This document shows, piece after piece, positions 1,764 through 35,927 of a DNA stretch of 39,745 nt. The stretch is taken from the IMG/VR virus record IMGVR_UViG_2579778884_000013. One strand, given 5' to 3'. Numbering within the stretch: position 1 is the stretch's first letter; each line of letters starts with the position of its first letter. Made by a program: the position numbers and the translations under genes. The stretch is from a virus. Taxonomy: Duplodnaviria > Heunggongvirae > Uroviricota > Caudoviricetes. The notes below the pieces were generated by a model. The model was not told the DNA's origin, did not search any database, and was given only the letters and a program-made list of their open reading frames with translations.

Positions 1764-2389
1764 ACCGCCAGCACCTTACTGGCAGTGATGTACCGCGCGC
1801 GCCGGTCGTCGATGCCGTTCCGGCCACCATTGATAATCAGAGTTACACGTGCAATATCGCCGGTATACTTCATGCATCCTTTGCTGGCAAAGAACCACGC
1901 CGCGCTACGAGCCGCGTATTCGTCCTGCGCCAGCAGTTCAGGACTCTCCAGCAGGTCAACCTTAAGACCGTTTCCACAGTCACGATAGTTATTCAAACCG
2001 GTAATCTGGATAAGTCCGCGACCACGGTAATTCCAGCCATCACCAGAGGCATTGTTACCCATGCGTTTGCTGTACACCAGATTTGCGATCGCGCGCTGGC
2101 GCTCAAGTGGCAATGGTGGCTCACCAGCACGGCGGCCCAGTGCGTTAGCCTGTCCCTGGGTGAGACGCCCAGCCCGAACGAAGTTAGCCAGTCCGGTGAC
2201 GCTGTAGTTGAAATTTTCCTGCAACCGGTTGAAGCCACCAGACTCATGCCCGACCTGAGCAATAAACATTGCCTGATCTTCGGGTTTGCTGATACCAAAC
2301 TCTTTCATCGCAGAAGTTATATGCGAGAACCAGCGAGCGGCCAGCGCCTCGCTAATACCAGCAGCTCGCTGGAATTGTTTAATCTCCAT
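1760..2389 (-). CDS. Endolysin, glycoside hydrolase family 19 (chitinase-like lysozyme)
   Basis: Motifs QVGHESGGF, NYRGRGLIQITGLNNY, SAAWFF typical of GH19 phage endolysins; ATG at 2389 with GAGG RBS; ORF-track upstream extension rejected. Confidence 0.85.
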   Translation of the reverse strand: MEIKQFQRAAGISEALAARWFSHITSAMKEFGISKPEDQAMFIAQVGHESGGFNRLQENFNYSVTGLANFVRAGRLTQGQANALGRRAGEPPLPLERQRAIANLVYSKRMGNNASGDGWNYRGRGLIQITGLNNYRDCGNGLKVDLLESPELLAQDEYAARSAAWFFASKGCMKYTGDIARVTLIINGGRNGIDDRRARYITASKVLAV

Positions 2390-2687
2390 GTTTAGACCTC
2401 GATATTTTGAAAATATGAACAACGTTACCGCGTGTTTTAATAACCGCGGCAAGCATGACAGCGTTGATAATGACCTCAGATAAATCCACAGCCATTGGCG
2501 TGCGTAACCAGATTGCATAGACGACACGAACAGGAATACTTGCCGCAGCAACAATAAGGAAATAAGCAAGCCACCCTCCCCATCTTCGATGTTGAGAGCC
2601 GTTACGCCGGAATGTGACAACGCGAATTGCTATGCCAGTACAAATAACTGCATTGGTGATAAGCAAAAAAAACTCATGCGTTACCAT
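2379..2687 (-). CDS. Small membrane protein of lysis cassette (second holin or antiholin candidate)
   Basis: Three hydrophobic segments; GGGGAG RBS; start overlaps upstream holin stop; stop overlaps endolysin start. Confidence 0.5.
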   Translation of the reverse strand: MVTHEFFLLITNAVICTGIAIRVVTFRRNGSQHRRWGGWLAYFLIVAAASIPVRVVYAIWLRTPMAVDLSEVIINAVMLAAVIKTRGNVVHIFKISRSKHGD

Positions 2688-3078
2688 CGTCTTTTCTCCC
2701 CGGAATTAACTCGCGTGGATTATCGGAACGGTGATAGAGCCAGATGCCAATACGCACGGCGACAATTGCTGACACGAATGCGCCTGCAGAGAAAACAATC
2801 CCTTTTTCAAAAGAGTCCTGCGTGATGGTAGGGATCAGGCTGGCTATGCCGATAAGAATTGATGCTGCTGGTTTGTAAAAGAGAAGGCCGCAAAGAAAGC
2901 TGAGCATCGACAGGAGCACCCGGCGACGGATGGGGTACTCTACTGCAGAGGTAACAAAAATTACCGCCCCAGCCAAAGCCCCTAAAGCAACCTCCGGAGG
3001 GACACCTGCAATAACCGCAGCAAGAGAACTAACACTAAGCCACTGATTTGAAGTTTCATTGGTTAGTTGGAATGACAT
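2674..3078 (-). CDS. Putative holin (three predicted transmembrane helices)
   Basis: Hydrophobic segments separated by short charged loops, charged C-terminus; first gene of lysis cassette directly after tailspike. Confidence 0.55.
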   Translation of the reverse strand: MSFQLTNETSNQWLSVSSLAAVIAGVPPEVALGALAGAVIFVTSAVEYPIRRRVLLSMLSFLCGLLFYKPAASILIGIASLIPTITQDSFEKGIVFSAGAFVSAIVAVRIGIWLYHRSDNPRELIPGRKDDGNA

Positions 3079-3150
3079 AACGAAACCCGTTTATTTGCAA
3101 ACACCCTGCTTCAGGAAAAGTATACCGCGCAACAACACACCATTTACGGT

Positions 3151-5613
3151 TCAATTCCCTGTTAATTGCAAAACTTGCTCTTCCAGCTTTTTAACCCTGC
3201 GTCTCATCATCGCAGATTCCAGAATCAGAGCCTCTTCATAACGGATACCGTAACATTCACCAGCCTCGACGGCTTCGCGTACCAGAACCTTTGTCTGTAT
3301 AAGTGGGTAAACTCCTGCAGAATGCTCTTCTTCCGTCACATCCCTGTATTCTGCCGGGGTCTCATTCCACTTGTCATAACAGATAAATGCCAGTCGTGAC
3401 ACATCTATGCCTTCATTCTGAAATACACTGATAACATGCTGCGCAACTGCACCAAAGTGCCATCTTGCTCCGTCTTTACCTTTCACTTCGATCCTGTCAA
3501 GGTACTGGTATGAAACCCATTCCACTCTTTCCCATGCGTCCAGTATTTTCTCATCAATAACCTCTGGAGCAGTCTTGAAACGCGCATCGGACAGCACCGT
3601 AAACGCTGACTGGGTAAATCCCCCCGACCATGCACGACCAGCCAACCCAAGAGAATAAGTATTCGTTGTCGATGGTGTCATGGCTGAATCAGAAAACTGT
3701 ATATATTCTGAATTTCCAGTAGATATTCGAATATTTCCATTTATTAGCGACATAGTGCCTTTAGTATTATCACTATTGAATAATTTCAATTGCGAACTTA
3801 TACCGCCTCCCACAGCCAGAGATACATCGCCTTCAGCAAGCATTCTGAATTTATCTGCAGAAACAAGCGTCTGGTTAGCAAGGTTAAAATATTTAACCCA
3901 CCATTCAAAACGCCCTGACATAGTCCCAACGTACTGACCAAGCGCAGGGACGTGAACAACATTGCTATTTGTAGTGCCGTCTATACTGGAAATACCAGTC
4001 ACCGCTGATGCAGAACTCAGAATATTATTTCTGTCACCCGGATGTTTAATTTCAACAAAGTTCCTGATACACCCTTCCTCGAAGGTAACCACGCCGGAAG
4101 AACTATACATGGGGAATATTGACGCATAATTACTGCGTGCAGCATCTAAGAAACGAATGGTTGTAGATGTCTGCAGATCTCCTGATTCATTTTTCCCATC
4201 ACACCCAGTCATTAGAATATTACTGGCAATATTATTATTTCCCTGAACGGTGACTCCGTGCGCCTGCTTTGCGTCCGATTCAGAGTAATCAACCAGCACA
4301 TTCGAAATCAGGTTACCAGTCCCCTTGCCAACAACTACTGCGGCGTATTTTGGGTTGTTAGCCATTACACTGCTAATGATATTATTCGTTGGGGCAGTTT
4401 CCGTCTCAGTTCCATTGTAAACAACGTGCTTACACTCTTCACCAATAACATTGCTGACAATGTTATATTTTGCTGCTGTTTTAAGTTCCACTGCACCAAA
4501 CTGAGGATAATTTCTGGCTATCACACCATCAATTAGCGTATTTTGCGATGAATCAAAAAGCACACAACCTGCTTTTTTATTATTTGCGAACCCTAAATAC
4601 TCTCCTCTTATATCTCTAACAATGTAACCTGACGGAATACCATTATTCGGATAAGCGATCAAGCTAAATCCTGTTCCTCGCGTATTTGTAAATCTGATAT
4701 TTTTAACCGATACATCATGGCCACCTGAAAATGACACCTGGTGTCCCTGCACACTATCATCTGATTTATTTCCCATAATTGTTAGCGTACTAAGCATGCC
4801 ACCATCGGGCATGTTAAAAACCAGATGATTACCATCTCTGTCATACTGTTTTATCGTTCCCCCACCTGTTCCGTACAAGCCACAACGTGAAAGAGAAACT
4901 AAAGATGTATTGAATACCCCTTCCGGAACAAAAACACTGCTAAACGAATGTAATGATTTTGTAAAAGCATCCTTGTTATCATTTAAGATTCCATTTTGAG
5001 CTCCAAAATCCTTAATGCTGACACCATCACGCATCTTATCCTGGAACGTTCTGTATACCGCTCCAGAACCATACTGAATAAACCAACCAAAACCACCAAT
5101 AACTCCGGCGATTGCAGCATCGACATAATTACGCATTGAGCGATTATTTACAGCGTCCTGCTCAAGTGATGGATCGGCAAGGTTAGATATTCTGTTTTGC
5201 TTTGCATCGTAATATTTTGCAAGCAAAGATGGTTTCATCAATGCACGTCTGAACCACCCAAAACATCGCTGGATCAGCATCGTCAGGTAGTCAAATGCAT
5301 CCTCATGAACTTCGGGGAAAAATTTTCCCTGATTGCGAAGATCAGTCTCCTGCACCACATCAAGCACACGCTCTATCGTGATTCGCCAGCCAGCAGCAAG
5401 CGGCGACGGAAGAACCACTGCACCGCCACTATAAGTTCCCGCCCCTGTTACCGTATAACCAGCATCCAGCACTAGTTTTGTAACGTTACCGTTAAGGTCA
5501 GACACCTGAACAACCAGGTCGGATTTTTTGAAAATACGGAAGGTATACGGAAATGATGTCGTAACGCCGTTACCTGTGTATTCGTTGTGGTCAACTTCGG
5601 TTGAGACCGTCAT
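3151..5613 (-). CDS. Tailspike: T7 gp17-like N-terminal anchor, parallel beta-helix depolymerase-like centre, C-terminal intramolecular chaperone (peptidase S74-like)
   Basis: N-terminus YTGNGVTTSFPYTF...LVVQV resembles T7 tail-fibre N-domain; central repeats with N-x-I/V motifs; C-terminal LSDARFK (Ser about aa 675, nt about 3589-3591) then chaperone-like region; GGAG RBS. Confidence 0.85.
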   Translation of the reverse strand: MTVSTEVDHNEYTGNGVTTSFPYTFRIFKKSDLVVQVSDLNGNVTKLVLDAGYTVTGAGTYSGGAVVLPSPLAAGWRITIERVLDVVQETDLRNQGKFFPEVHEDAFDYLTMLIQRCFGWFRRALMKPSLLAKYYDAKQNRISNLADPSLEQDAVNNRSMRNYVDAAIAGVIGGFGWFIQYGSGAVYRTFQDKMRDGVSIKDFGAQNGILNDNKDAFTKSLHSFSSVFVPEGVFNTSLVSLSRCGLYGTGGGTIKQYDRDGNHLVFNMPDGGMLSTLTIMGNKSDDSVQGHQVSFSGGHDVSVKNIRFTNTRGTGFSLIAYPNNGIPSGYIVRDIRGEYLGFANNKKAGCVLFDSSQNTLIDGVIARNYPQFGAVELKTAAKYNIVSNVIGEECKHVVYNGTETETAPTNNIISSVMANNPKYAAVVVGKGTGNLISNVLVDYSESDAKQAHGVTVQGNNNIASNILMTGCDGKNESGDLQTSTTIRFLDAARSNYASIFPMYSSSGVVTFEEGCIRNFVEIKHPGDRNNILSSASAVTGISSIDGTTNSNVVHVPALGQYVGTMSGRFEWWVKYFNLANQTLVSADKFRMLAEGDVSLAVGGGISSQLKLFNSDNTKGTMSLINGNIRISTGNSEYIQFSDSAMTPSTTNTYSLGLAGRAWSGGFTQSAFTVLSDARFKTAPEVIDEKILDAWERVEWVSYQYLDRIEVKGKDGARWHFGAVAQHVISVFQNEGIDVSRLAFICYDKWNETPAEYRDVTEEEHSAGVYPLIQTKVLVREAVEAGECYGIRYEEALILESAMMRRRVKKLEEQVLQLTGN

Positions 5614-5717
5614 GTTAAATCTCCAGATAGTCGCAGCACCCGTTGCGCCGCATATCTGGTTATTCTATTACCAAAAAAACCATATATGGATAGAAAGACT
5701 GTGAATATGAATAGATA

Positions 5718-5732
5718 TTACCTTTCAGGTAA
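5718..5732. promoter_or_regulatory. Operator-like palindrome TTACC-N5-GGTAA (TTACCTTTCAGGTAA)
   Basis: Perfect 5-bp inverted half-sites with 5-bp spacer, in divergent intergenic region between tailspike and SOS-controlled small gene; same motif recurs at least 11 more times. Confidence 0.5.
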
Positions 5733-5771
5733 TTTGCAAAACGTGCTGGATAGCAAACAAATTATTTGCTA

Positions 5772-5787
5772 CTGTATAAATATACAG
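5772..5787. promoter_or_regulatory. LexA (SOS) box CTGT-N8-ACAG
   Basis: TACTGTATAAATATACAGTTA matches consensus TACTGT(AT)4ACAGTA; 8 nt upstream of ATG 5795 and 23 nt upstream of ATG 5810. Confidence 0.75.
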
Positions 5788-5809
5788 TTATTGCATGGAG
5801 AAGATTAAG

Positions 5810-6067
5810 ATGCAGCAGTATCACTATCCACTGGAAGAGGGATTTACCGAAAGGATTCACACGCCGGGAGGCGTCAGGTCACTGGTGGAGGGATCGCACT
5901 TGATGAAATTACTCCGGGATCTCGATAAGGATGGATTTAATGTCGATGGCCCACTTGCCGAACTGACTGCACTGATTAACTACGTCACCAGCTCACAGAT
6001 GTCTATGCAGGATCTGCAAACACATCTCGACTATTGTGCCGAACAATTACGAAAACAAACCAGATAA
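5810..6067 (+). CDS. Small SOS-controlled protein, paralog of C-terminal domain of adjacent AntA-like protein; candidate small antirepressor
   Basis: GGAG RBS 9 nt upstream of ATG 5810 (alternative ATG 5795 lacks RBS); aligns with C-terminus of 6385..7041 product (LMKLLRDLDKDGFNVDGPLAELT vs [24 protein letters not shown]; DLQTHLDY vs DIQTHAEY). Confidence 0.6.
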   Translation: MQQYHYPLEEGFTERIHTPGGVRSLVEGSHLMKLLRDLDKDGFNVDGPLAELTALINYVTSSQMSMQDLQTHLDYCAEQLRKQTR

Positions 6068-6098
6068 GGTTTGAAATTACCAAATGGAGTGCTTATAT

Positions 6099-6113
6099 TT
6101 ACCTTTGCGGTAA
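6099..6113. promoter_or_regulatory. Operator-like palindrome TTACC-N5-GGTAA (TTACCTTTGCGGTAA)
   Basis: Perfect half-sites; lies between small SOS gene and AntA-like gene. Confidence 0.45.
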
Positions 6114-6203
6114 ATTTACATCGCACTCCTCTTGTGCCATAGTAATCGGGCACTGGCAAAATCCAGTGCCGGGATTGGTCTCCCGGATTACTAAGTGGCG
6201 CAT

Positions 6204-6227
6204 ACCACGCCAGACGTGGTTTTTTTA
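6204..6227 (+). terminator. Rho-independent terminator after small SOS gene
   Basis: Stem ACCACG/CGTGGT with 5-nt loop followed by T7 run. Confidence 0.5.
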
Positions 6228-6384
6228 TGCGTATAGCACAGTCATGCCAGAATTATGGTGGGCTGAATGGGGGTCCGAAAGGACGCCGGTACCACTTAGG
6301 CCGGTAAGACCAACTCCGTTCAGTTCACCACCATCTGATTGGTCTCAGCGGTGGTGATGTAATTCGCTAAGTGGAGACGCCATC

Positions 6385-7041
6385 ATGAACGCTCAACTCA
6401 TCCCCGTATTCAACGGCACTATATCTAACGAAACAGCCCTACTTTGTAATGCCCGCGATCTGCACGCTTTTTTAGGTGTTAAAAAGGTGTTTGCAGCATG
6501 GATTACAAATCGCATATCAGAATACGAATTCATTGAAAATCAAGACTATATTTTGCTTTCCAATTTGGGAAAGCAAACATCTGGTAGAGGCGGCCACAAC
6601 CGCAAAGAGTACCACCTCACCCTTGATACAGCCAAAGAGCTGGCGATGGTCGAGCGTAACGAAAAAGGTCGCCAGGTGCGACGCTACTTCATTGAATGCG
6701 AGAAACGTTTAAGACAACAAGAAACAAAAGTGGAGAAGGTCTTGTCAGGCTTCATGCCCGCCATTATGGAGGCGATCAAGCTGGAAGACAAAAAAGAATA
6801 CAGTGCCCCACTGAAGCCCGGCTACCGCAGCCTGATTCACTCGCCGTCTGGTGTTCTCGGCCTGACGGAGAACTCACTGCTGATGAATCTGCTGAACCAG
6901 TTACAGGACGACGGGCACGACGTATCGGGCGCGGCGGCGGAGCTGACCACCATGTTCTGCTACATCGTTGGTGTGAGCAAATGCCTGCGTGATATCCAGA
7001 CGCACGCGGAGTACATCAACGACAAGGCAGGGTTCTTCTGA
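6385..7041 (+). CDS. AntA-family antirepressor-like protein with C-terminal domain shared with small SOS protein
   Basis: N-terminal region [32 protein letters not shown] resembles AntA/AntB antirepressor domain; GGAG RBS 8 nt upstream. Confidence 0.7.
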
Positions 7042-7085
7042 CGGGCGGCGGCACAGGGATGTGCCTTTAAATAATTCTGTACAGA

Positions 7086-7128
7086 TTGCAGACTGGGGGT
7101 GAATAGCGTACTATTACCTCAAGGGTAA
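7086..7128 (+). promoter_or_regulatory. Candidate sigma70 promoter (TTGCAG-17-TACTAT) with operator-like palindrome TTACCTCAAGGGTAA (7114-7128) at -10/+1
   Basis: -35/-10 hexamers with 17-bp spacer; palindrome starts at last base of -10; 60 nt upstream of 210-aa gene. Confidence 0.45.
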
Positions 7129-7187
7129 GAAAGCATTTTTAATCTTCCCTTCAAAACGCGTCCTGTAGCCAAACATGGGAGGACGAA

Positions 7188-7820
7188 ATGAGAACAAATA
7201 CAACAAGAAAAGCGATGCCATACATTATCCCAGAAGCAGATTTCGATAGAAAACTGAACATGTCTGAGAAGAACACTAGTCACACCGAAAGCTACTTAGC
7301 GAAAGGTGTGGTTGATTTCGTTCTTCCGGGATTCACAACACCTTATGGTTATCGCCTTGTAAAATCTTGTAATGGCGATCATTACAGAATGATTACTACC
7401 AGCGATACTCCAGAAACGGTGTATGCGGTTAAGTTAATCTTTCGGGAAGATATCGTCGAAGCCAAAAGAACATGTACGCAGATCATGGTATGGCGTACGC
7501 CTAATGTTATTCATGACCGTGCTGTTCATGGTTTGCCTCAGATTTTTTTTCAGTTCTTCCTAGAGCAATATGCGATCGTTGTATCTGATGAGCAACAAAC
7601 AATCGATGGGAGAAGATTCTGGGAAAGAATGATTTCTTGGGCTATAAACACCCCAGGATATAATGTATACGTTTCAGATGGCTCTGAAGAAGATAGACCT
7701 CTTAGCTTCATGACATCATGGGATGATTTCTATAGCCAGTGGGCTGATTTCTGTTGGGGCAGTGATAAAGATGTGCATACCCACAGACTACTGGTTATAA
7801 GCAAAGATAAACTGCATTAA
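7188..7820 (+). CDS. Hypothetical 210-aa cytoplasmic protein, no family recognised (orphan accessory gene)
   Basis: Strong GGGAGG RBS 5 nt upstream; own promoter/operator and terminator; appears AT-rich by eye relative to neighbours; no TM or signal peptide. Confidence 0.6.
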   Translation: MRTNTTRKAMPYIIPEADFDRKLNMSEKNTSHTESYLAKGVVDFVLPGFTTPYGYRLVKSCNGDHYRMITTSDTPETVYAVKLIFREDIVEAKRTCTQIMVWRTPNVIHDRAVHGLPQIFFQFFLEQYAIVVSDEQQTIDGRRFWERMISWAINTPGYNVYVSDGSEEDRPLSFMTSWDDFYSQWADFCWGSDKDVHTHRLLVISKDKLH

Positions 7821-8111: not shown

Positions 8112-8492
8112 TCACGCAACGCAATTATTACCGCGCCATGTAACATTTTTAATAATCTTATCAGCACCAAACTCAACGTAAACAGAGCAACTGAAATGGA
8201 GTGTATAACCGCCATCAGTTGTTGCGTATGTGTTTGAATATATAGTATTACCAATTAGATTAGACGTAGTATTATACGTTGTGGTTTGTGGTACGTTATA
8301 ACTACCAGAGCTTGAGTAAACATACACTCTGTTTCCATCTGGAGATGTAAGCTCTCCCTGAGGATACCCCCACTGCTGAACCATTGCGTCTATACTCTGC
8401 CCGCGCCACGTAAGCATATTTCTTTCAAACTGTGCAGCTGACTGGCATCCAACGAGAAGCATAAATCCAAAAATCAAAAATACTTTTCTCAT
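8112..8492 (-). CDS. Lipoprotein of unknown function (Ser/Thr/Asn/Tyr-rich mature domain); candidate lysogenic-conversion or superinfection-exclusion gene
   Basis: Signal peptide MRKVFLIFGFMLLVGC with lipobox LVGC; AGGGG RBS 5 nt upstream of ATG 8492; own terminator; encoded within accessory island between late genes. Confidence 0.6.
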   Translation of the reverse strand: MRKVFLIFGFMLLVGCQSAAQFERNMLTWRGQSIDAMVQQWGYPQGELTSPDGNRVYVYSSSGSYNVPQTTTYNTTSNLIGNTIYSNTYATTDGGYTLHFSCSVYVEFGADKIIKNVTWRGNNCVA

Positions 8493-8539
8493 AATTACCC
8501 CTATCATGGAAAAACAGCACCAATCCACAAATTAACTAG

Positions 8540-8728
8540 TTATTTTATTATTCTTCCGAACAATACAATTCCTAATACTACAAAGCCGAACCATGCCGCT
8601 GCACGCAACAGAGATTCCAATTGAAACCCATTTTTATCAAAATGTATGAATAGCATAAAAACGCTGCACATATTAGTACAATAAAAGTTATTTGAACCAT
8701 CATATCTCCTTTTATTGCGGAGTGACAT
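8540..8728 (-). CDS. Possible small membrane protein (62 aa)
   Basis: Start overlaps stop of upstream ejection-protein gene; C-terminal hydrophobic segment AAAWFGFVVLGIVLFG; AT-rich; weak support. Confidence 0.3.
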   Translation of the reverse strand: MSLRNKRRYDGSNNFYCTNMCSVFMLFIHFDKNGFQLESLLRAAAWFGFVVLGIVLFGRIIK

Positions 8729-11186
8729 CCTGTGGTCGCCACCAGTATGTCTGGTTAAACTCTTTCTTCGAACGTTGCTCCATTTTACGCAAATAGCCTG
8801 GTGAAAAATACTCCTGCATCTGGTTAAAGATCATGTGATCGAGAGCCGCCTTCAAGTACCAGAGATTCGCACCAGGCATCAAACCTTTCCCCAGCTTCAC
8901 CAGATCACCACCAGTCTGCTCACTCTTCCCTTCCACAGCATTTAACGGTATGCCCTGAGCAATCTTCACTACGTCATCAACCAGACCAGCTACCGGGCCA
9001 AGCATCGACGCCAGCGCGCCGCTTCCGTACCTAGTGTGATCTGACAATAAAAAGTCACCGTAAAGGCCAAGACCACCACCTTTCAGTAGAGCACCAAGCC
9101 AAAATTTAGCAGCATCTTCTCCTGTCATCTCGCGAGGATTACGACCAGACGCAAGGTCGTTAAGTTGCTGCGACAAAGCGCCAAGAATGGTCGTACTGGC
9201 AATAAACGTCGCAATATATGCCGCACGCCCACCAGCAGACGGCATACCCATAGCGCGTGACCAGTGACGCATAACCACCGAGATAGGGAACGATTTAAAC
9301 AGGAAAACACTTCTCGTTAATTCACCTTTCCATGTTCCACGCTGAATACCAGAACCGGTTATCAGTTGCTCACGTGCTCCCGGTGTAATAACAGCCATAT
9401 CAACTTCTTCAGTTACGGCACCGAGCAGTTTACGCATTGCCTCAAATTTCACGCGTTCAGGCTCACCAAGATGTTTAACTGCTGAATCAGGGATACGCAT
9501 AATGCTTTCCGGTGTCAGCATCGTATTATTGCCGTTCCCCCAGTCCTCCTGTTGCGCCAGCTTCCATACGCTCCAGTCTGTGTCAGTAATCCCTTTGCTT
9601 TTCAGGATACGAAAATCAGAATCATCGAGGCTACGAAGGTCTGGTGTCCGTGACACTACTTCTCCCAAGCTTCCCATCATGGTTACGCCATAGGCGCGCT
9701 TGTGCGCATCTGACCATGCTGTAAGCCCACTGGCACGCATTACCGCCGTTGCAGCCCAACGAGACACAGACGGCCCCATATTATCCATCGCCCAGCGGTT
9801 AACGCTGCCAAGTAGAGATTCCATCGCCAGACCAGCGCGGCGCGCCCGCGCAAGTTCTGTACGGTTCGTTGGGTCCATAGCTTCAAGCTGGTTGCGGAAT
9901 AACTGGTTCATTGGAAGGTTGGTAACCTTCGCAGACAGATACATGGTTCCAAGATCAGAGAACGATGACAGCAACGCGGATCCGAGTCTGCTGGCAACCA
10001 GCCAGTTGCGGATATTGTCAGACCATCGCGCGATGTGCGGATTCGCTACAGGCTGTGTCTTTCCGGAAATAAAGTTGTACAGATTCTCTGTGTTGTTCGC
10101 CAGCCGCTCGACTTTACCGGTTTTACTCGGGTTAGCTGTTGCCGTTTCTGCCTTCACCTGATCAAGAAGAGAGCGGAAAACATGATCGGGGTTTGGGCCA
10201 TATGTTTCCACCAGTGCAATATCTTTACTGATACCTTCCAGGTGACCGACCATGATTTCCCATAGAGAGCGATCGCCATAAAGTTGCTGATATTGAAGAT
10301 AGGAATCTGCATCTTTGAAATGTATCTGTCGTGATGCATTACCACGGTTAGCACGTGCGCCGGAAATTCGCATTCCGGTATCAGTAAGCTTATTCAACCC
10401 ACCAGTAGCGATCGTGTTATAAGCCTCTCCAAGAAATGCAGACAACTCGGCATCGTTCATCAGTTGTCCATCGGCTCGGGTATAATATTTGCGATCCAGC
10501 TTACCTATAACATCGCTAACCCATTTATCTTTTGATACCGCCCCAACCTTTTCCATAGAATGATGTTGAGGGATCCCCCAGTTTTCGAGATAGCCAATGT
10601 CCCCACCAGCATCATTAAACCGGCGGCGCAGCAGCTCTGTAACTTCTCTCCACGCCTTAGCACCTTTTCTTGCTTTAGCATTGCCAGTATTTTGCCCCCG
10701 CATTTCATATACCAGGTCACGTACGCCAGCTTCATCTTCAAACAGACCAAAAAAGCGAGGATCAACTGCTTCGAATGCCTCCTGCAATTGACTCAATGCA
10801 TAATCACGGGTGGCTTTTGTTCTGGATTCAACAGAGAGGAAATTCGATTTACCGTCTGCATTAAAAGCAATAGTACGGTTAAGAGCGCCAAGTTTCCCAT
10901 CAGCCCCTTGATAGCTATTGATAAATTTATCCAATCTCTGACGTGCGGCTATAGTGAGGGCCACACGACGTTTCTTTAATGCCGCTTCTCGCTGTAATTC
11001 TTCAGATGCCAATTGTGCTGCACGATATAGCCGCTCTGATTCGGAAAGTTGTCTCCACGACATCGGGTCATCACGAGCAATAGAGCGCATATTTCGATAA
11101 ATGCGGTCTTCAATGTTCTGTATTTCTCGCGCCGTTAACGTGCGCTGCGCCGCCTGCTGGACCGCTTGTATACATTCCTGTCTCAT
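8712..11186 (-). CDS. Large internal virion (ejection/core) protein, T7 gp16-position
   Basis: 824 aa; AGAGG RBS; C-terminal hydrophobic/Gly-rich segments; position between tail-tube genes and tailspike. Confidence 0.6.
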   Translation of the reverse strand: MRQECIQAVQQAAQRTLTAREIQNIEDRIYRNMRSIARDDPMSWRQLSESERLYRAAQLASEELQREAALKKRRVALTIAARQRLDKFINSYQGADGKLGALNRTIAFNADGKSNFLSVESRTKATRDYALSQLQEAFEAVDPRFFGLFEDEAGVRDLVYEMRGQNTGNAKARKGAKAWREVTELLRRRFNDAGGDIGYLENWGIPQHHSMEKVGAVSKDKWVSDVIGKLDRKYYTRADGQLMNDAELSAFLGEAYNTIATGGLNKLTDTGMRISGARANRGNASRQIHFKDADSYLQYQQLYGDRSLWEIMVGHLEGISKDIALVETYGPNPDHVFRSLLDQVKAETATANPSKTGKVERLANNTENLYNFISGKTQPVANPHIARWSDNIRNWLVASRLGSALLSSFSDLGTMYLSAKVTNLPMNQLFRNQLEAMDPTNRTELARARRAGLAMESLLGSVNRWAMDNMGPSVSRWAATAVMRASGLTAWSDAHKRAYGVTMMGSLGEVVSRTPDLRSLDDSDFRILKSKGITDTDWSVWKLAQQEDWGNGNNTMLTPESIMRIPDSAVKHLGEPERVKFEAMRKLLGAVTEEVDMAVITPGAREQLITGSGIQRGTWKGELTRSVFLFKSFPISVVMRHWSRAMGMPSAGGRAAYIATFIASTTILGALSQQLNDLASGRNPREMTGEDAAKFWLGALLKGGGLGLYGDFLLSDHTRYGSGALASMLGPVAGLVDDVVKIAQGIPLNAVEGKSEQTGGDLVKLGKGLMPGANLWYLKAALDHMIFNQMQEYFSPGYLRKMEQRSKKEFNQTYWWRPQDVTPQ

Positions 11187-11191
11187 TTAAT

Positions 11192-12994
11192 TTAACCTCT
11201 CAAGAAACACGCCACAGCGACATCAAACAGGCTGGAATCCTGTATTGCCTGCTCACTTTCCCTGTTCGCTTCATCCAGTACTTCACGCGCGCTGCGCGAT
11301 TGTGGATTACCATCATCATCCAGCACGGTGATTATCATGTCAGGTGATTCAAGCAGCGAGTCTTCAGCTATGCGCAGATCAATATCTCCTGCCTTATCTG
11401 ACATCATTTTTTGTTCTGCCTGTTGCAATATTTTATCAGGCTCAAAAGGAGCTACTTCGTCTGGCGTCCTGACCTCTGCTGTTTTATAGAATGAAACAGC
11501 CTGAGCATTAAGTTCACTTTCTGCCTGCTGTCTCCGAGCCAGTTCTGCTCGAGCTTCAAAAAGCTGACCGCCAGGCTCGTGCGGTGCCAACGCGTTACGG
11601 GAAAATTCCAGGCGTTCTTGTGCCTGCCGGATTCGTTGATCAATATCGCGAAGTCTGGCCTGTTTATCTGATCGAGCACGAGACAAAGCTTTACCGCTAC
11701 CGGTTGGCTCTTCTGCAAGAATTTGTGCACGCTGTTCAGTGAGATTTTCAATAATTCGTTGGCTATTAGCGATTTCAGACTGGTAAACCTGTCTATCTCC
11801 ACGCGGCAAAAGCTGCGCGGCCTGTTCTTCAAGCAACCGATTTTCTATAGCGCGCGCCGTTACTCCATCATCTACAGATGACAGAGCCTCATTAACTGCC
11901 TGAGACAGCAGACTCTTGCGCCCAGGAATTTCACTGAAAGATGCAGACTCAACAATGCTGGCAACGTCTACAGGTCTCCCCTGGCTAACATCAGACATAG
12001 CTTTTCGCAGAGCCTGAATGTGAGAATTGCGCGAAAGCACGTTGATCGGCACGCCGGGCGCAATATCAATTTCAGCATGATGAGCGGCATTCGCCGCCAG
12101 TGCAGCATCGATATCAACTGGTGAAAAATTTGGTGCGTTTGTAGACTCGCCGCGAGAGTTAATAAATCTGCCGACACCACCAAACGCCACCCCAAGAACA
12201 GCATCAATAGCAATTGCCTGTCGATCCAACACATCATACTGGTTAGCCATTTCGCTATAGCCACCATCACGAAGCGTTTTTGCAGTAAGCCCACGCTGTG
12301 CCATACCGAACGCAATATTTGTACCTGCGGCATAGGCAATATCTGGCGTTGCACGTACTGCTGTTGCTGCGGCGCGTCGTACTGAACTTTCACCCGTCCG
12401 CGCGAGCTGAGCCGCCACACCTTCCGCCAGCGCACCACCAGCACGTAACCCGAGGCTCATAGGGATCAATGTCCCGGCCCCAGCAGTAATGCCCTGCACT
12501 AATCCCGCTTCCTGCGCTGTCCTGAAATCAACACCCTGTGCTGTCAGCCGTTCAAACTCAGAAAAACCCTGTAGCGAAGTTACCGCCGCTGCACCTCCGA
12601 CAGGACCACCGAGCGTTGTACCGACAACAGCCTGCCCGCCCATATCGAACAACCCATAAAGAACCTGCCCGGCGGTTCCGGTTGTCGCGGCATCAGGCGT
12701 CAGCCGCTTAACCTGCTGCTCTGCTAGTTTTCTCTGCTCGGCAATGTATGAAACTGAAGTGTCATTGAGCGAGGTGTTTTCGTTAACAAACTGAGCAATC
12801 GGGGATACGATTTTATCCATCCCTGCCCATAGCAACTGATCTGGCTTTGCCACCAGCCCGGAGTACAAACCAGACAATGCCGCTCCTACAGCATTGTCGA
12901 AAAAACCAACATCGCTGTTAAAGCCAGCTGGATTTGATACTGCTTCGTCAAGCTGCTGATTCTGGTTTACTGGATTAAGGCCAAAGTAACTCAT
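11192..12994 (-). CDS. Internal virion (ejection) protein
   Basis: 600 aa, Ala/Gly-rich; start overlaps upstream stop (ATGA); position in ejection-protein block. Confidence 0.55.
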   Translation of the reverse strand: MSYFGLNPVNQNQQLDEAVSNPAGFNSDVGFFDNAVGAALSGLYSGLVAKPDQLLWAGMDKIVSPIAQFVNENTSLNDTSVSYIAEQRKLAEQQVKRLTPDAATTGTAGQVLYGLFDMGGQAVVGTTLGGPVGGAAAVTSLQGFSEFERLTAQGVDFRTAQEAGLVQGITAGAGTLIPMSLGLRAGGALAEGVAAQLARTGESSVRRAAATAVRATPDIAYAAGTNIAFGMAQRGLTAKTLRDGGYSEMANQYDVLDRQAIAIDAVLGVAFGGVGRFINSRGESTNAPNFSPVDIDAALAANAAHHAEIDIAPGVPINVLSRNSHIQALRKAMSDVSQGRPVDVASIVESASFSEIPGRKSLLSQAVNEALSSVDDGVTARAIENRLLEEQAAQLLPRGDRQVYQSEIANSQRIIENLTEQRAQILAEEPTGSGKALSRARSDKQARLRDIDQRIRQAQERLEFSRNALAPHEPGGQLFEARAELARRQQAESELNAQAVSFYKTAEVRTPDEVAPFEPDKILQQAEQKMMSDKAGDIDLRIAEDSLLESPDMIITVLDDDGNPQSRSAREVLDEANRESEQAIQDSSLFDVAVACFLRG

Positions 12995-16056: not shown

Positions 16057-16520
16057 TATTTTCTCTCCATGTGAAATCTGTGGAAATTAAGACCAAGAGC
16101 ACCATAAGGCGCGGCTTCTTCAAGCCTGAATCCAAGCCAGTGCAGCCATGCTTTGGCAACATGGTTTCGCTCGTCGACGTAGTTTTCCAGGCGCGGATAA
16201 ACTGCCAGCATCTGCTGCAATACAGGGCGGCAGTGGCGAAGAAATGTCTTCTGATATTTTTCGATACGGCTGGTTCCGACCAGCCAGGGCGTACCATTGC
16301 CACCGATCATTGACGCCGGAGATACGCCAAACATGGTTACCAGTTCTCCGTTCGCAAATCCTGACCAGGCCATAGTCGCAGTACGCAGACCAACACGCAG
16401 CGCATCTTCGGTAGTCATCAGCGATACCGCATACAGTTCGTCAATATCAGCCTGACGAACATCCGGCAAAATCATCTGAAGATGCTCTTCGGTTGCGGGA
16501 ATAATTTGAACATCGATCAT
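16056..16520 (-). CDS. Small virion protein (internal virion protein A-like, possibly GNAT-like fold)
   Basis: 154 aa; translationally coupled to tail tubular B-like gene; C-terminal WLHWLGFRLEE resembles acetyltransferase-fold proteins. Confidence 0.45.
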   Translation of the reverse strand: MIDVQIIPATEEHLQMILPDVRQADIDELYAVSLMTTEDALRVGLRTATMAWSGFANGELVTMFGVSPASMIGGNGTPWLVGTSRIEKYQKTFLRHCRPVLQQMLAVYPRLENYVDERNHVAKAWLHWLGFRLEEAAPYGALGLNFHRFHMERK

Positions 16521-18991
16521 CAGAACCCCCCAACAGTAAGGCGAGGAATAACGGCAAGAACAGACAGCGGCAACGGGTCAAGCTGACGGATTTTTACACG
16601 TCCGTTTTTGCCCCAGTTACTGTCCAGTTTCACTTCTACTTTTCCGGTAGCATCATCAACAGGATCATCGTAGAACTCGAATTCACGCTGTGGATATTCG
16701 TACCATTTACCGCCAGGCGTAGTCGCCCAGATGCCGCGGCTGGCATTCACAACCAGAGTAACGGAGGGGATCACCTGTTTTTTGTCCAGCAGCGTTTCCT
16801 GTCCGTTAATGTTGATATCCAGTGTTTCGAATTCAGCAGTTATTGGCAGGCCGATGTGCACTACAGCCCCCGGAGATTCCAGTGTGACGGCACCTCCGGA
16901 AACAACTTTCTGTGGCTCAACATTCGCATCAGAAAGAATGTTTACGGTCTGGCCTTCAAGATGAGACAGGCCTCCAAATGTCCGGCGCGCCATCTGCCAG
17001 TTCGTGGTGGCCACATTCCTGAGGGATGGCGGGACGTTCCTGTTAGCACGAACCACTACAGCGGTATTGCTGGTTACAGAAATAATGTCGCAACGTAATT
17101 CTTTTGACACTTCATCGCCAGTATCAGGATCAGTTCCGGTATAAGGGAACTGTAGTTGCGCGCCGACATCACTACTGGTGAAGTACGCACCACCAGAAAC
17201 ACTGATTGTATATTCCGCATGGTAATCCCATTCACCAGAACCACCAGTGATGGTCATCGTTCTGTCAGACGTATTTCTTCCATCATAGCTAAGGCCAGAA
17301 TCAACAAAGAAAGCATCTTCATCGCTGGTAAATAAACGGCTGGACAGTCGCTCGATGTATCTCACTGTTTGCCCGTTAACGGTTCGGTTAACGACGAAAT
17401 ACACCGCATCTTCATTGCCTTCGCTGATACTGCATGTGCTTTCATATTTTCCGGTACTGGATTGTGGTGCCCATGCAAAAACCTGCTGATCACGCAAATA
17501 GGTCATCACCAGTAATTTACCGTCATCACGAATGCAGAAGGCACTGGAGTAAGGGACAATCGAGAAGCACCAGTCAACAATGCTGTGCTTCTGAAAAAGA
17601 TGATTGGCAAGGATGGTCAGGTCGTTCCCCTGATAGCCGTCAACATCGAATGAGTAGGCCAGATCACGGACAACGCTGCCTTTCTCCTGGACGAACAGAG
17701 CAATATTCGCCACGGCAATTGGCGGGACGTTGCTTGAGCCATTTGATCCCTGAGAGCTGAATGCAAATGATGATGGGGTTAACACTTTGTTCTGGTCGCC
17801 GGTGATGACGTACTCACCTCCGGAAGTCAGCGCCACCAGAGAACCAACATCAATCAGGTGGCGGATCTCATTAACCTGACGTCCGGCATAGGTGTAGATA
17901 ATTCTGTCGTCATCCTGCGTAGGATTGCTTTTGCCAAAATCCTTATAATCCCCGGTACGGCTGGCCCAGATAGTCTGAGGAAACGCAGTCGATGCGGCGA
18001 AGTAAAGACGTTGTTGATAATAAACAACAGTGCCAGGATAACCATTAACACTGTTCCAGGCATATTTAGCCCATTTATAGCTGGCATTATCCTCGCCAAC
18101 GACCTGCGAAGGGATATAGGAAATCACCTCAGCAGTTGCAGTAGTGCCATTTGCAGCAGTGATACGGGCAATGCCAAAACCACTGTGCAGATACTCCCAC
18201 TCAATGCCAGTATCATCATCACCGGATCCGCCCCAGCCATCCCATGATGTGCCTTCTGTATGCGAAGGGCGCAAAGTACCTGTTTTGCCTGCTGTAACGG
18301 CGCGATAGTAGTTACTGTCTGCACGGCGAATATCGCCAATCGACGTACTCTTACTGGTTTCCCATACCGGCACAGAATCCACTGCAGGCTGTTCCAGATA
18401 GAACAATTTGCCTACCTGCTCCGCGCCAAAAATAGAGGCGCTTGCCGTTAACGTAATTGTCCCGGTGCTGGCGCTGGCATAAACCGTCACTGACTCGTCA
18501 ATATTGATATCTTCAAATGGCCCGTTCTTCGTTACCACATCAACCAGTTGCCAGTTGTCATGCGCATAGCGGCGCAACTCTTTCGGCGGGTATGCCGGAT
18601 GAACCAGCGTAAGCACGTCTGCGCTTTGCGTGAATTTAATTCGGAACAGATCGGCTTCAGTATATGGCGTGGAAATTTCATAAATAACATTGCTGCTGTT
18701 CAGCACCAACGCACCATCTTTGATAACGCGCATGTACTGGTGTCCGAACTCCAGAGCATAGGTCTGAACCGTCGAGAACTGGAACGGGATCAGGCGGCAT
18801 TTCCGATTTGGGTATTTGGCGGCACCGACAAAACGCGTACCAGGTCGATTCTCAACGCCGCCATACTGCCGCACGATAAAGTTATCGCACTTGCGCAATG
18901 CCACCTGGTACTTCGCCATGTCGATACGACCGTACAACGACGGTCCAATCTCACCACCGGCAAAGCTGGGCTGTATCCAACTGATAGCCAT
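16520..18991 (-). CDS. Tail tubular protein B-like (nozzle; T7 gp12-like)
   Basis: 823 aa, size and position as T7 gp12; follows gp11-like gene with 1-nt overlap. Confidence 0.55.
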   Translation of the reverse strand: MAISWIQPSFAGGEIGPSLYGRIDMAKYQVALRKCDNFIVRQYGGVENRPGTRFVGAAKYPNRKCRLIPFQFSTVQTYALEFGHQYMRVIKDGALVLNSSNVIYEISTPYTEADLFRIKFTQSADVLTLVHPAYPPKELRRYAHDNWQLVDVVTKNGPFEDINIDESVTVYASASTGTITLTASASIFGAEQVGKLFYLEQPAVDSVPVWETSKSTSIGDIRRADSNYYRAVTAGKTGTLRPSHTEGTSWDGWGGSGDDDTGIEWEYLHSGFGIARITAANGTTATAEVISYIPSQVVGEDNASYKWAKYAWNSVNGYPGTVVYYQQRLYFAASTAFPQTIWASRTGDYKDFGKSNPTQDDDRIIYTYAGRQVNEIRHLIDVGSLVALTSGGEYVITGDQNKVLTPSSFAFSSQGSNGSSNVPPIAVANIALFVQEKGSVVRDLAYSFDVDGYQGNDLTILANHLFQKHSIVDWCFSIVPYSSAFCIRDDGKLLVMTYLRDQQVFAWAPQSSTGKYESTCSISEGNEDAVYFVVNRTVNGQTVRYIERLSSRLFTSDEDAFFVDSGLSYDGRNTSDRTMTITGGSGEWDYHAEYTISVSGGAYFTSSDVGAQLQFPYTGTDPDTGDEVSKELRCDIISVTSNTAVVVRANRNVPPSLRNVATTNWQMARRTFGGLSHLEGQTVNILSDANVEPQKVVSGGAVTLESPGAVVHIGLPITAEFETLDININGQETLLDKKQVIPSVTLVVNASRGIWATTPGGKWYEYPQREFEFYDDPVDDATGKVEVKLDSNWGKNGRVKIRQLDPLPLSVLAVIPRLTVGGF

Positions 18992-19596
18992 CAGGACAAC
19001 CTCGCAATGGTAAACTCGTCAACCGGTGGCTGTGGTTCCTGTGATTCATTCTGGCTATGCGAGCCAGCACTAAGAATCACGCGATTGTACATATTGAGGG
19101 CAAACGTACCGAGGTCTGCATTCCCAGTCAGCGCCATGTTAATAGCTGCCGCAAGACGCCAGGCCAACGCCTCCATAAAAATGGCATCAAACATGTTCAC
19201 ATCTGTAACGCGAGAGACATACTTGAGCCATGCCTGAGGCTGGTCTGTGTAGATCAACTTTCCTGTTCCGTTGGTGTCTACACCTACTTCGTACTGAACG
19301 CGCATTGCTGCTGTTGGATTGCGTACACCAGGAAGCATAATTTCAGTAATGCGCAGACAATCGGACGGGTACTGATACGCATATTCCCAGTCAGGCGGTG
19401 GATTGCTCGTATCTGCCAGCGCCACGCGTTTGGTAGCAAAGTTCCAGTCAAAATCAGAAAGCACAGCATCACGGCAGGCCTCAAAGTGCAGCGAACATTC
19501 CCCCGCTTCCTTGCTGGCTTCCGTCAGGCTGTTAATGCTGCGGCTATTGCCAATATTGGACAGCGCACGATTGCAGATCTCTACTACAGAGGCCAT
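18991..19596 (-). CDS. Tail tubular protein A-like (adaptor; T7 gp11-like)
   Basis: 201 aa; N-terminus VVEICNRALSNIGNSRSINSLTE resembles T7 gp11 N-terminus; precedes gp12-like gene. Confidence 0.5.
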   Translation of the reverse strand: MASVVEICNRALSNIGNSRSINSLTEASKEAGECSLHFEACRDAVLSDFDWNFATKRVALADTSNPPPDWEYAYQYPSDCLRITEIMLPGVRNPTAAMRVQYEVGVDTNGTGKLIYTDQPQAWLKYVSRVTDVNMFDAIFMEALAWRLAAAINMALTGNADLGTFALNMYNRVILSAGSHSQNESQEPQPPVDEFTIARLS

Positions 19597-25124: not shown

Positions 25125-25201
25125 GTGGCATTAGCTCAGTTGGACAGAGCAACCGCCTTCTAAGCGGTTGGTCGCAGGTTCGAATCCTGCATGCCACGCC
25201 A
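25125..25201 (+). tRNA. tRNA-Arg (anticodon UCU, reads AGA)
   Basis: Cloverleaf read directly: acceptor GTGGCAT/ATGCCAC, D-arm GCTC-AGTTGGACA-GAGC, anticodon arm ACCGC-CTTCTAA-GCGGT, T-arm GCAGG-TTCGAAT-CCTGC, discriminator G, encoded CCA. Confidence 0.85.
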
Positions 25202-34722: not shown

Positions 34723-35022
34723 ATGAACGTTAATCAGCAGAAAAATCTTCAAAAAATCATGCTGGCATTCGACAAGGACTACCCCCTGTCAGAACAGCTA
34801 TATGACCGACAAGTTGAACTGATTGAGAGCATCCGACTTCATCAACTGTCCTCAACTTTCGACGTTGTAACAGGCAAAGGCGTTCGTCAGGAAGTGCTGG
34901 AGGCTGCTAAAGACAGCCCTGAGTTCGAAGAACTGATGGATGCCTACCGGCGCGAGGCAATGGCAATTATAGCGCGCTGGGATCTGGCGGATCAGCTTGA
35001 TGGGCAGAGGGACGCGGCATGA
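34723..35022 (+). CDS. Hypothetical early protein
   Basis: GGAGGG RBS 6 nt upstream of ATG 34723; stop overlaps exonuclease start. Confidence 0.5.
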   Translation: MNVNQQKNLQKIMLAFDKDYPLSEQLYDRQVELIESIRLHQLSSTFDVVTGKGVRQEVLEAAKDSPEFEELMDAYRREAMAIIARWDLADQLDGQRDAA

Positions 35023-35918
35023 TGCGGAACGCTGGAATCATGGATAGAACAAAATACATCGGAGGAAGCGATGTTGCAGGGATTCTTGGAATTAGCCCAT
35101 GGCGCACCCCGCTTGAGGTTTATCTGGATAAGGTACAGCCACGTGTCAAACCAGTAGACCCAAGCAAGCAGAAAGTTTTCACGCGTGGCCAGCGTATGGA
35201 GCCATACGTAATAGACCTGCTTTCTGAGGAAACAGGGATGGAAATCGTTCATCGCGGAAACCGCTATATCCACCGTGATTACGATTTTATTGCAGCTGAG
35301 ATCGATGCAGAAGCAGCGTCAGGCGAGAACATTGAGATCAAAACAGTTAGTCCGTTCAAAGCCAAAGAATGGGGAGAAATCCAGACAGATGCAATTCCTG
35401 TGCATTACACGGCCCAGGCCATGCACGGGTTGATGGTTACAAACAAACAGGTATGCGTTTTCGGTGTGCTTATCGGTGGCGACGACTTCCGAATCTATCG
35501 GGTTGAGCGTGATGAAGAAACTATCCAGGCGATCTTAGAAAAAGAAATCGCTTTCTGGGACCGAGTGAAAAATCTTAACCCGCCGGAAGCTACCAGCGTA
35601 AGCGATGTATCGCTGATGTTTGAGAAAGATGCCGGGACAAGTATCGAGGCTGACGGAAAGGCACTCGCACTATTCAACGATCTACGAGACATGAAATCAC
35701 GCAGAAAATCACTGGAAGAAGAAATAGCTATATCAGAAGAGAAGCTGAAGATGTACATGCAAGAGCACTCAGTCCTGACCCTGGACGGAAAGCCGCTCTG
35801 CACATGGAAATCTCAGATCAGCAACAGATTCGACCAGAAGCTATTCCAGTCAGTACACCCTGAGTTATTCGAAAAATTCAAAACAACAACGACACAACGC
35901 GTCTTCAGAATGAAGTAA
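35019..35918 (+). CDS. YqaJ-like viral recombinase exonuclease (lambda Exo-fold)
   Basis: N-terminal motif YIGGSDVAGILGISPWRTPLEVY typical of YqaJ domain; immediately upstream of recT. Confidence 0.8.
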   Translation: MMRNAGIMDRTKYIGGSDVAGILGISPWRTPLEVYLDKVQPRVKPVDPSKQKVFTRGQRMEPYVIDLLSEETGMEIVHRGNRYIHRDYDFIAAEIDAEAASGENIEIKTVSPFKAKEWGEIQTDAIPVHYTAQAMHGLMVTNKQVCVFGVLIGGDDFRIYRVERDEETIQAILEKEIAFWDRVKNLNPPEATSVSDVSLMFEKDAGTSIEADGKALALFNDLRDMKSRRKSLEEEIAISEEKLKMYMQEHSVLTLDGKPLCTWKSQISNRFDQKLFQSVHPELFEKFKTTTTQRVFRMK

Positions 35919-35927
35919 GGAGAAAAA

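Follow-up and report, generated by a model that had tools for sequence, protein, structure and literature searches.

A prophage tailspike of Escherichia coli with a predicted K5 capsule lyase, an epsilon15-type anchor and a Peptidase_S74 chaperone

Which surface polysaccharide does the tailspike of an Escherichia coli prophage recognize, and how is such a spike put together from its parts? We addressed this question for a 39,745-nucleotide (nt) stretch of viral DNA (Caudoviricetes; IMG/VR record IMGVR_UViG_2579778884_000013), referred to at its full length as the window, in which host DNA is followed by a nearly complete temperate podophage of ~38.6 kb with intact open reading frames (ORFs). 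On the minus strand, positions 3151..5613 form a single unbroken ORF with an ATG start, which encodes 820 amino acids (aa) plus a stop codon. RefSeq labels the 820-aa product only as “tail fiber domain-containing protein.” An initial annotation made from the letters of this DNA had described a three-segment tailspike at 3151-5613 without giving a strand; the gene proved to be real, and its anchor, enzyme barrel and chaperone were all confirmed. We conclude that its product is very likely the tailspike with which an epsilon15-like temperate podophage, integrated beside yfgI in E. coli, both binds and destroys its receptor, the K5 capsule. The architecture is ordinary and has already been described for K5 lyases and endosialidases. 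What is mildly new is confined to the explicit prophage type, the boundaries of the exchanged cassette and the finding that a K5-specific prophage has persisted where the K5 capsule was since lost or replaced.

The gene and its parts lie in the window as follows:

3151..5613, minus strand: complete tailspike gene, 89.7-kDa precursor (ORF list, translation)
5344..5613, minus strand: N-terminal beta-sandwich, predicted virion-docking (particle-binding) domain, aa 1-90 (AlphaFold2 [AF2], Foldseek, phmmer)
5044..5343, minus strand: helical neck, aa 91-190, with the YDAKQNRISNLADPSLEQDAV motif, common to T7 gp17, and the conserved GGFGWFIQYGSGA junction motif (AF2, BLASTP)
3934..5043, minus strand: right-handed parallel beta-helix, predicted K5 heparosan lyase catalytic domain, aa 191-560 (phmmer, AF2, Foldseek)
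4486-4488, 4480-4482 and 4417-4419, minus strand: proposed catalytic residues E376, K378 and Y399, respectively (homologue alignment)
3589..3933, minus strand: C-terminal stem, aa 561-675, in KflA an intertwined triple-stranded beta-helix, ending at the predicted cleavage serine S675 at 3589-3591 (alignment to residues 465-542 of 2x3h)
3154..3588, minus strand: Peptidase_S74 intramolecular chaperone, aa 676-820, with the general-base lysine K680 at 3574-3576 (Pfam PF13884, matches to 3gw6 and 3gud)

A predicted K5 lyase module and its chaperone

The central part of the protein carries the substrate prediction. In phmmer searches, residues 199-675 matched the crystal structure of KflA, the tailspike of coliphage K5A (2x3h), with an E value of 2e-184, and residues 192-814 matched 9vvr, the tailspike chain in the tail structure of phage E1004, with an E value of 4e-225. 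The full-length AF2 monomer model contained a regular beta-helix of short strands, with predicted local distance difference test (pLDDT) values of 73-97 over residues 200-560. The top Foldseek match of this model was again KflA (2x3h_A; E value of 5e-42, template modeling [TM] score of 0.75, 60% identity), followed by generic right-handed beta-helix enzymes and tailspikes. The initial annotation had seen a beta-helix depolymerase in the central ~500 aa and had proposed structure prediction of the segments; the homology to 2x3h together with the AF2 and Foldseek results bore out the depolymerase, and the predictions recovered both the beta-helix and the beta-sandwich of the anchor.

Across the K5-lyase family, 104 of 486 central positions are invariant. 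E376 and K378 are found in all 17 K5-lyase-type homologues (17/17) and Y399 in 16 of the 17, and the three residues correspond to E242, K244 and Y265 in the 2x3h chain. Thompson and colleagues reportedly proposed, in 2010, Glu206, Lys208 and Tyr229 as the catalytic residues of KflA; we take these to be the same three residues, with a numbering that fits an offset of +36 in 2x3h. Because of the homology to KflA and ElmA, the conserved catalytic residues and the co-occurrence with kfi genes described below, the enzyme is predicted to be a K5 heparosan lyase of the KflA/ElmA family, with the K5 capsule and not an O-antigen as its receptor. Of the two specificities that the initial annotation had offered, capsule or O-antigen, the former is thereby retained, with K5 as the predicted type, and the latter is dropped.

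The barrel is followed by a stem for which the confidence of the AF2 monomer model was low (residues 567-682), as expected because this fold exists only in the trimer. At the C terminus, PF13884 matched residues 675-735 with an E value of 1.4e-13 and 51.3 bits (cutoff, 22), and the chaperone matched those of endoNF (3gw6; E value of 8e-21) and phi29 gp12 (3gud; E value of 2.5e-20). The 3gw6 structure is that of a Ser-to-Ala mutant; S675 aligns with the mutated position and K680 with the lysine of the dyad, which we take to be Ser911 and Lys916 of endoNF. The 3gud chain begins with SDERHK, and the tailspike here has SDARFK. All of the aligned homologues (20/20) have both S675 and K680, which form an S-x4-K dyad at the domain boundary. 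The endosialidase-type chaperone that had been read into the C-terminal ~145 aa from LSDARFK is thus upheld by a Pfam score above the cutoff, by homology to endoNF and phi29 and by the aligned Ser/Lys dyad. The sizes given for it, ~145 aa and ~16 kDa, were accurate: the D676-N820 fragment has 145 aa and a computed mass of 16.9 kDa, and residues 1-675 amount to 72.9 kDa. The chaperone is predicted to be released as this fragment, leaving a 72.9-kDa spike. In Dpo31, the Cobetia phage Carin-1 tailspike, the domains are similarly arranged, and an 18-kDa D4 fragment is released (PMC13317679).

Capsule genotypes of carrier genomes and the choice of substrate

We then considered the capsule genes of the strains that carry the tailspike. 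The gene is present at full length and at least 99.9% identity in many complete E. coli chromosomes, and its central part was found in 68 of 5426 complete E. coli genomes, with an identity of at least 99% in 67 of the 68. One carrier, strain 4/0, contains a complete K5 locus (kpsFEDUCS-kfiDCBA-kpsTM) in which kfiA, kfiC and kfiD are annotated; an example of a carrier locus is NZ_CP059339.1 3238614-3254611. Co-carriage was counted with a chimeric query consisting of 500 nt of the lyase and 500 nt of kfiC, which matched 301 genomes. In total, kfiC was detected in 269/5426 genomes: 36 of the 68 carriers were positive (53%), compared with 233 of the 5358 noncarriers (4.3%), corresponding to an odds ratio of 24.7 and a naive Fisher p of 7e-30, uncorrected for clonality. 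When the chimeric-query approach was used with kpsE, group 2 kps region 1 was found in at most 66 of the 68 carriers. Nissle 1917 (K5), an expected carrier, was kfiC positive and absent among the 60 of 68 carriers listed, giving a kfiC match only.

The kfiC-negative exceptions that we inspected are explicable, either as K1 strains of sequence type 1193 (ST1193) after a switch from K5 to K1 or by an IS1 deletion. Carrier MS8320 belongs to ST1193 and has a K1 (neu) region 2, and a recombinational K5-to-K1 switch has been described for this sequence type (PMC11488385). The ST1193 carriers include MS10711 (K5) and MS8320, MS10858, MS8324, MCJCHV-1 and 09-02E (all K1; capsule types from PMC11488385). 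The ST1193 strain MS10860 (K5) gave a kfiC match only. In one ST131 carrier (NZ_OX637964.1), an IS1-bounded deletion removes glc, sslE, gsp and kps. At ~766665-772600 and 772000-797937 of this genome, IS1 abuts a fatty acyl-AMP ligase gene, and glc-sslE-gsp-kps is gone up to the pheV island; the strain is a lysogen without kps at the usual site. The prophage in K1 ST1193 looks like a relic of a K5 ancestor that preceded the capsule switch, and a K5-specific prophage in K1 ST1193 and in the acapsular ST131 genome would provide an independent trace of an earlier K5 capsule.

The tailspike might in addition double as an enzyme that is expressed by the lysogen and trims the host's own K5 capsule, and the resulting conflict between lyase and capsule might contribute to the loss or replacement of K5 (K1 in ST1193, the IS1 deletion of kps in ST131). 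We regard such a double role as unlikely. If it were true, K5-lyase prophages would be fossil markers of ancestral K5 and possibly also drivers of capsule switching.

Several points weigh against the assignment to K5. Overall identity to KflA is just 55-57%; it rises to 63-69% within the catalytic core and drops to 35-49% across aa 191-300, and fine specificity could therefore differ. In addition, 32 of the 68 carriers are without kfiC, and the co-occurrence statistic ignores clonal relatedness. The equation with ElmA, discussed below, draws on a length of 820 aa and a chromosomal origin and was confirmed by no database name. The beta-helix could be a lyase or depolymerase for a non-K5 polysaccharide, namely, a diverged K5-lyase paralogue retargeted to another group 2 capsule, and the identity of just 53-57% to phage K5 lyases, together with the K1 or kps-less examples among the kfiC-negative carriers, would fit this proposal. 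We nevertheless consider it very unlikely. The proposed catalytic triad is invariant in the family (Y399 with the single exception noted above), as are the 104 central positions; kfiC is 12-fold enriched in carriers; the K1 carriers belong to ST1193, with its documented capsule switch; and the deletion in the acapsular carrier is secondary. Moreover, chromosomal K5-lyase homologues in E. coli were found only as 820-aa proteins, which is the length of the experimentally active ElmA.

The virion anchor, the exchanged cassette and the prophage

The predicted K5 lyase is preceded by an anchor of ~190 aa. In the AF2 model, the strands of its beta-sandwich are confident over residues 9-82 (pLDDT of ~90), and neck helices are predicted at residues 103-125, 130-139 and 154-172, with low confidence in the monomer. 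Residues 1-179 matched Dpo31 (28lx/8ck1) with an E value of 6.5e-30 in phmmer and of 4e-40 in a profile search. Foldseek aligned the anchor model with 8ck1_B, the Carin-1 fibre in situ (E value of 1e-11), and with the N terminus of T7 gp17 (E values of ~4e-4 for 7ey9_a/b and ~1e-3 for 7boz; probability of 1.0, TM score relative to the target of 0.49-0.51), at an identity to T7 gp17 of 12-16% in the structural alignment; these fold comparisons use the predicted model, which is confident for residues 9-82 only. The best 23 Foldseek matches were nearly all tail-proximal N-terminal parts of podophage fibres or spikes, and the matches include Carin-1, LME-1, PhiM1, T7 gp17, Kp7/Kp9, HRP29 and E1004.

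Kinship with T7 gp17 by sequence was rejected, since the Pfam, BLASTP, hhalign and profile tests failed or returned a motif of 22-25 aa. Against PF03906, the anchor reached 12.8 bits (cutoff, 25.2; E value of 0.099), over residues 135-161 only. Comparison of the anchor profile with T7 gp17 by hhalign gave a probability of 13%, and the profile did not recover T7 gp17 from the PDB. The BLASTP similarity consisted of one 22-aa motif matching gp17 residues 128-149, which reads YDAKQNRISNLADP..DAV in the anchor and LDARGRRIVNLANA..DAV in T7 gp17. Likewise, an exhaustive HMMER search with the anchor provided no bridge to T7; the 150 best listed relatives all had an identity of at least 59%. What links the anchor to T7 is therefore its predicted fold. 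Judged from the model, the anchor would function like the T7 gp17 N terminus and probably has the same fold, but the gathering score of PF03906 places it outside that family. Thus, where the initial annotation had assigned a T7-type anchor to the N-terminal ~120 aa, a docking-type anchor with a T7-gp17-like predicted fold remains, but its length is ~190 aa and its sequence scores below the PF03906 threshold. The true sequence relatives of the anchor are the tailspike N termini of epsilon15-like phages and Carin-1.

These relatives are numerous. The anchor matched 25,126 representative clusters at an E value of ≤1e-3, with 59-99% identity among the 150 best representatives, and it is kept at 80-96% identity in hundreds of tailspikes with unrelated C-terminal modules. 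The modules behind it include PF12708, PF11962, PF12218 and GDSL, in proteins of many lengths, and the conserved anchor unit measures ~185-205 aa. The lyase and chaperone, in turn, occur behind at least five other kinds of N terminus, at 53-57% identity from ~residue 190 to ~818. The lyase-bearing architectures have 843 aa (Kayfunavirus type), 632-640 aa (Vectrevirus type), 778 aa (Kagunavirus type), 784 aa (in phages of 72-76 kb), 755 aa and 1012 aa. In every K5-lyase homologue, the alignment continues through the chaperone, and the lyase was never seen without it; the exchange unit is therefore the anchor on one side and lyase, stem and chaperone on the other.

A blastn comparison with Uetakevirus ZX5 delimits this unit. 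The two share 92% identity from 744 nt before the start of the gene through gene nt 615 (window 6358..4999) and again 95.8% in window 3049..1890, ~100 nt past the stop codon, where the holin and endolysin genes lie. In between, the identity disappears:

3050..4998, minus strand: exchanged cassette, lacking DNA similarity to Uetakevirus ZX5 and containing lyase, stem, chaperone and ~100 nt of 3' flank (blastn)

In other Uetakevirus-like phages, the break point falls at gene nt 536-615. The recombination unit is bipartite, with its left junction at ~aa 185-205, just after the conserved GGFGWFIQYGSGA motif. A swapped receptor-binding module had been anticipated, and the comparison with ZX5 displays it as a single exchanged cassette between conserved flanks. 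The possibility that the chaperone is exchanged on its own, as a third module, was also considered, but it was rejected because alignments run on through the chaperone and ZX5 shows a single cassette.

Base composition follows these boundaries in part. The GC content of aa 191-675 is 0.412, with 0.34 at third codon positions (GC3), compared with 0.465 in the N-terminal and 0.462 in the C-terminal part of the gene. The window has a mean GC content of 0.487 (standard deviation, 0.027), and no non-overlapping 1455-nt stretch is as low as the lyase part. An AT-rich central module had been noted by eye; it is indeed the lowest-GC stretch of the window, and composition is not uniform across the gene, but the effect is limited to the lyase part, and the chaperone is ordinary in this respect.

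Two related tailspikes were also seen. One (P0016) is an 820-aa chromosomal variant with 89% identity, whose divergence lies mostly in aa 191-450 (75-83% identity); its anchor, stem and first chaperone part are 92-96% identical to those of the tailspike here. This pattern suggests recombination or diversification inside the N-terminal half of the lyase barrel. The other (P0057; 800 aa, in a cluster of 74 E. coli members) has 94-97% identity over aa 1-190 of the anchor and a related S74 chaperone of ~50% identity. Its central region, at 20-33% identity, has essentially no relationship to the one here, and P0057 represents a sister tailspike of another specificity. Genes for a RecE-like exonuclease and a RecT-like annealing protein lie at window 35019-36950 on the plus strand. 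The prophage thus brings along a homologous-recombination system of its own, a point that bears on the cassette exchanges of the tailspike.

The host genes yfgH and yfgI fill positions 1-1071 of the window, and the prophage adjoins yfgI. It contains lysis genes (for an Rz-like DUF2514 protein, a GH19 endolysin and two holins), with the tailspike next to them, and virion genes for three large ejection proteins, a T7 gp14-family protein, a nozzle, an adaptor, capsid proteins and a T7-type portal. Other prophage genes are those for tRNA-Arg(TCT), terminase, replication, RecE/RecT, a methyltransferase and an integrase. DNA matches to vB_EcoP_ZX5 (Uetakevirus), phiv142-3, HEMP4, TL-2011b and Salmonella phage VB_ST_E15 argue for classing the prophage as epsilon15-like (Uetakevirus type) and not T7-like, with a portal, gp14-like protein, adaptor and nozzle that are T7-type in layout. 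The last two are the predicted partners of the anchor:

18991..19596, minus strand: adaptor (T7 gp11-equivalent), 201 aa, predicted anchor docking partner (phrog_394; 8ck1_E, the Carin-1 connector, E value of 8e-26)
16520..18991, minus strand: nozzle (T7 gp12-equivalent), 823 aa, predicted anchor docking partner (phrog_376; 8ck1_A, the Carin-1 tail nozzle, E value of 1e-217, full length)

The initial annotation was right about the function of gp11/gp12-like genes upstream, but they lie 11-14 kb away, with ejection-protein genes and an opposite-strand block in between, and the phage is not T7-like overall. For anchor, adaptor and nozzle alike, homologues occur in the solved Carin-1 tail complex (8ck1), from which we infer their contact.

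From these homologies, assembly and action of the spike can be proposed as follows. The 89.7-kDa precursor would trimerise, and the Peptidase_S74 domain (aa 676-820) would template folding of the intertwined stem (aa ~561-675). By homology, the chaperone would then cut itself off after S675 by means of the S675/K680 dyad, yielding the 72.9-kDa chain and the 16.9-kDa fragment. As in the Carin-1 tail complex, the beta-sandwich and helical neck (aa 1 to ~190) would dock the trimers at the adaptor-nozzle junction of the tail. The beta-helix (aa ~191-560) would bind the K5 capsular polysaccharide, heparosan, and cleave it by beta-elimination, which may let the virion drill through the K5 capsule.

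Several further features of the prophage were observed. A three-gene block on the opposite strand (window 6034-7820, plus strand) parts the tailspike and lysis genes from the remaining virion operon; it contains a 107-aa ORF, an AntA/BRO-type anti-repressor gene (6385-7041) and a gene for a 210-aa phrog_1349 protein (GC content of 0.408), and Uetakevirus ZX5 has the same layout. A 138-aa ORF (phrog_3716; 8112-8528, minus strand; GC content of 0.403, GC3 of 0.345) lies downstream of the last large ejection-protein gene, and the tRNA-Arg gene (anticodon TCT; 25125-25201, plus strand) sits between the portal and terminase genes, opposite in strand to the structural genes. The ejection proteins have 824, 600 and 837 aa here (8712-15504, minus strand) and 849, 565 and 873 aa in the otherwise similar prophage of strain 4/0 (L001 10028-16897). 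Since these proteins differ and the tailspikes are nearly identical, mosaicism in these prophages extends beyond the tailspike. A promoter and terminator scan around the tailspike gene gave background-level counts only.

ElmA and comparison with known tailspikes

An N-acetylheparosan lyase of E. coli K5, ElmA or “eliminase,” was reportedly cloned by Legoux and colleagues in 1996 and is said to have first come to notice through the activity of E. coli K5 cultures. That the gene might accordingly be a domesticated bacterial eliminase in a defective prophage, trimming or releasing the host's own K5 capsule and no longer working as a phage part, is very unlikely: ElmA is listed in a review as a prophage-borne K5 lyase of E. 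coli K5 (PMC3594737) and the gene is at least 99% conserved in 67/68 genomes, including lineages no longer making K5, but the ~38.6-kb prophage is complete, with intact integrase, RecET, terminase, portal, capsid, adaptor, nozzle, ejection-protein, tailspike, holin and endolysin genes, Uetakevirus phages that were isolated and form plaques have 92-96% identity to it in the anchor and flanks, and a protein expressed in the lysogen can still function as a tailspike.

The tailspike described here, with its predicted K5 specificity, is most likely ElmA itself or one of its alleles; ElmA is chromosomal in E. coli K5 and, like this protein, 820 aa long. The name ElmA was absent from the cluster-member and homologue records, all of which are generic, and the papers in which elmA appears provide neither its sequence nor its length. 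A phage tail fibre that has only the anchor in common with the tailspike here is annotated “eliminase.” ElmA is already in use for cutting heparosan in heparin biomanufacturing and has served as a heparosan lyase in heparosan engineering (PMC12834895).

Little of this is new, given that K5 lyase tailspikes, chaperone-assisted maturation and the exchange of receptor-binding cassettes are well documented. The substrate can nevertheless be predicted with good confidence despite the generic RefSeq label, and the cassette boundaries, with a junction at ~aa 185-205 and lyase plus chaperone as one unit, should be useful for engineering tailspikes on an epsilon15-type anchor.

Among known systems, KflA of coliphage K5A (2x3h) and the K5 lyase of phage K1-5 are homologous to the tailspike throughout the beta-helix, stem and S74 chaperone. 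The KflA crystal chain ends at the serine that aligns with S675, and the proposed catalytic Glu, Lys and Tyr are conserved here, but megablast found no nucleotide-level similarity between the two lyases and the tailspike. KflA has 632 aa with a short N terminus of ~30 aa, which presumably suits an SP6-like adaptor system, whereas the tailspike here has a 190-aa epsilon15-type anchor and belongs to a temperate phage. The tailspike of coliphage E1004 (9vvr; 843 aa, as in Kayfunavirus phages), solved within the tail structure, carries a lyase and chaperone cassette like the one here. Its N terminus, however, is a Pfam-recognised T7 tail-fibre domain followed by PF18668, unrelated in sequence to the anchor here, and E1004 is a virulent T7-like phage, on which the literature search returned nothing of relevance. 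ElmA, too, is a chromosomal and prophage-borne K5-lyase homologue of E. coli; the tailspike here may be ElmA or an allele, and the 89% identical 820-aa variant also exists.

For the remaining parts, the chaperones of endoNF (3gw6) and phi29 gp12 (3gud) are homologous domains (E values of ~1e-20) with an aligned dyad that also follow a trimeric beta-stem, at identities of ~25-36%; in endoNF the chaperone is attached to a sialidase, and here it is attached to a lyase. The N-terminal domain of T7 gp17 (PF03906; 7ey9, 7boz) has a similar predicted fold and one 22-aa motif in common with the anchor and sits at the adaptor-nozzle junction. In Dpo31 of Cobetia phage Carin-1 (28lx/28mg; 8ck1 in situ), as here, a beta-sandwich is joined to a helical neck, and the adaptor and nozzle partners are homologous. 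Uetakevirus ZX5 is collinear with the prophage here in the anchor and both flanks, at 92-96% DNA identity, and the receptor-binding modules of both the Dpo31 and ZX5 tailspikes are unrelated to the module described here.

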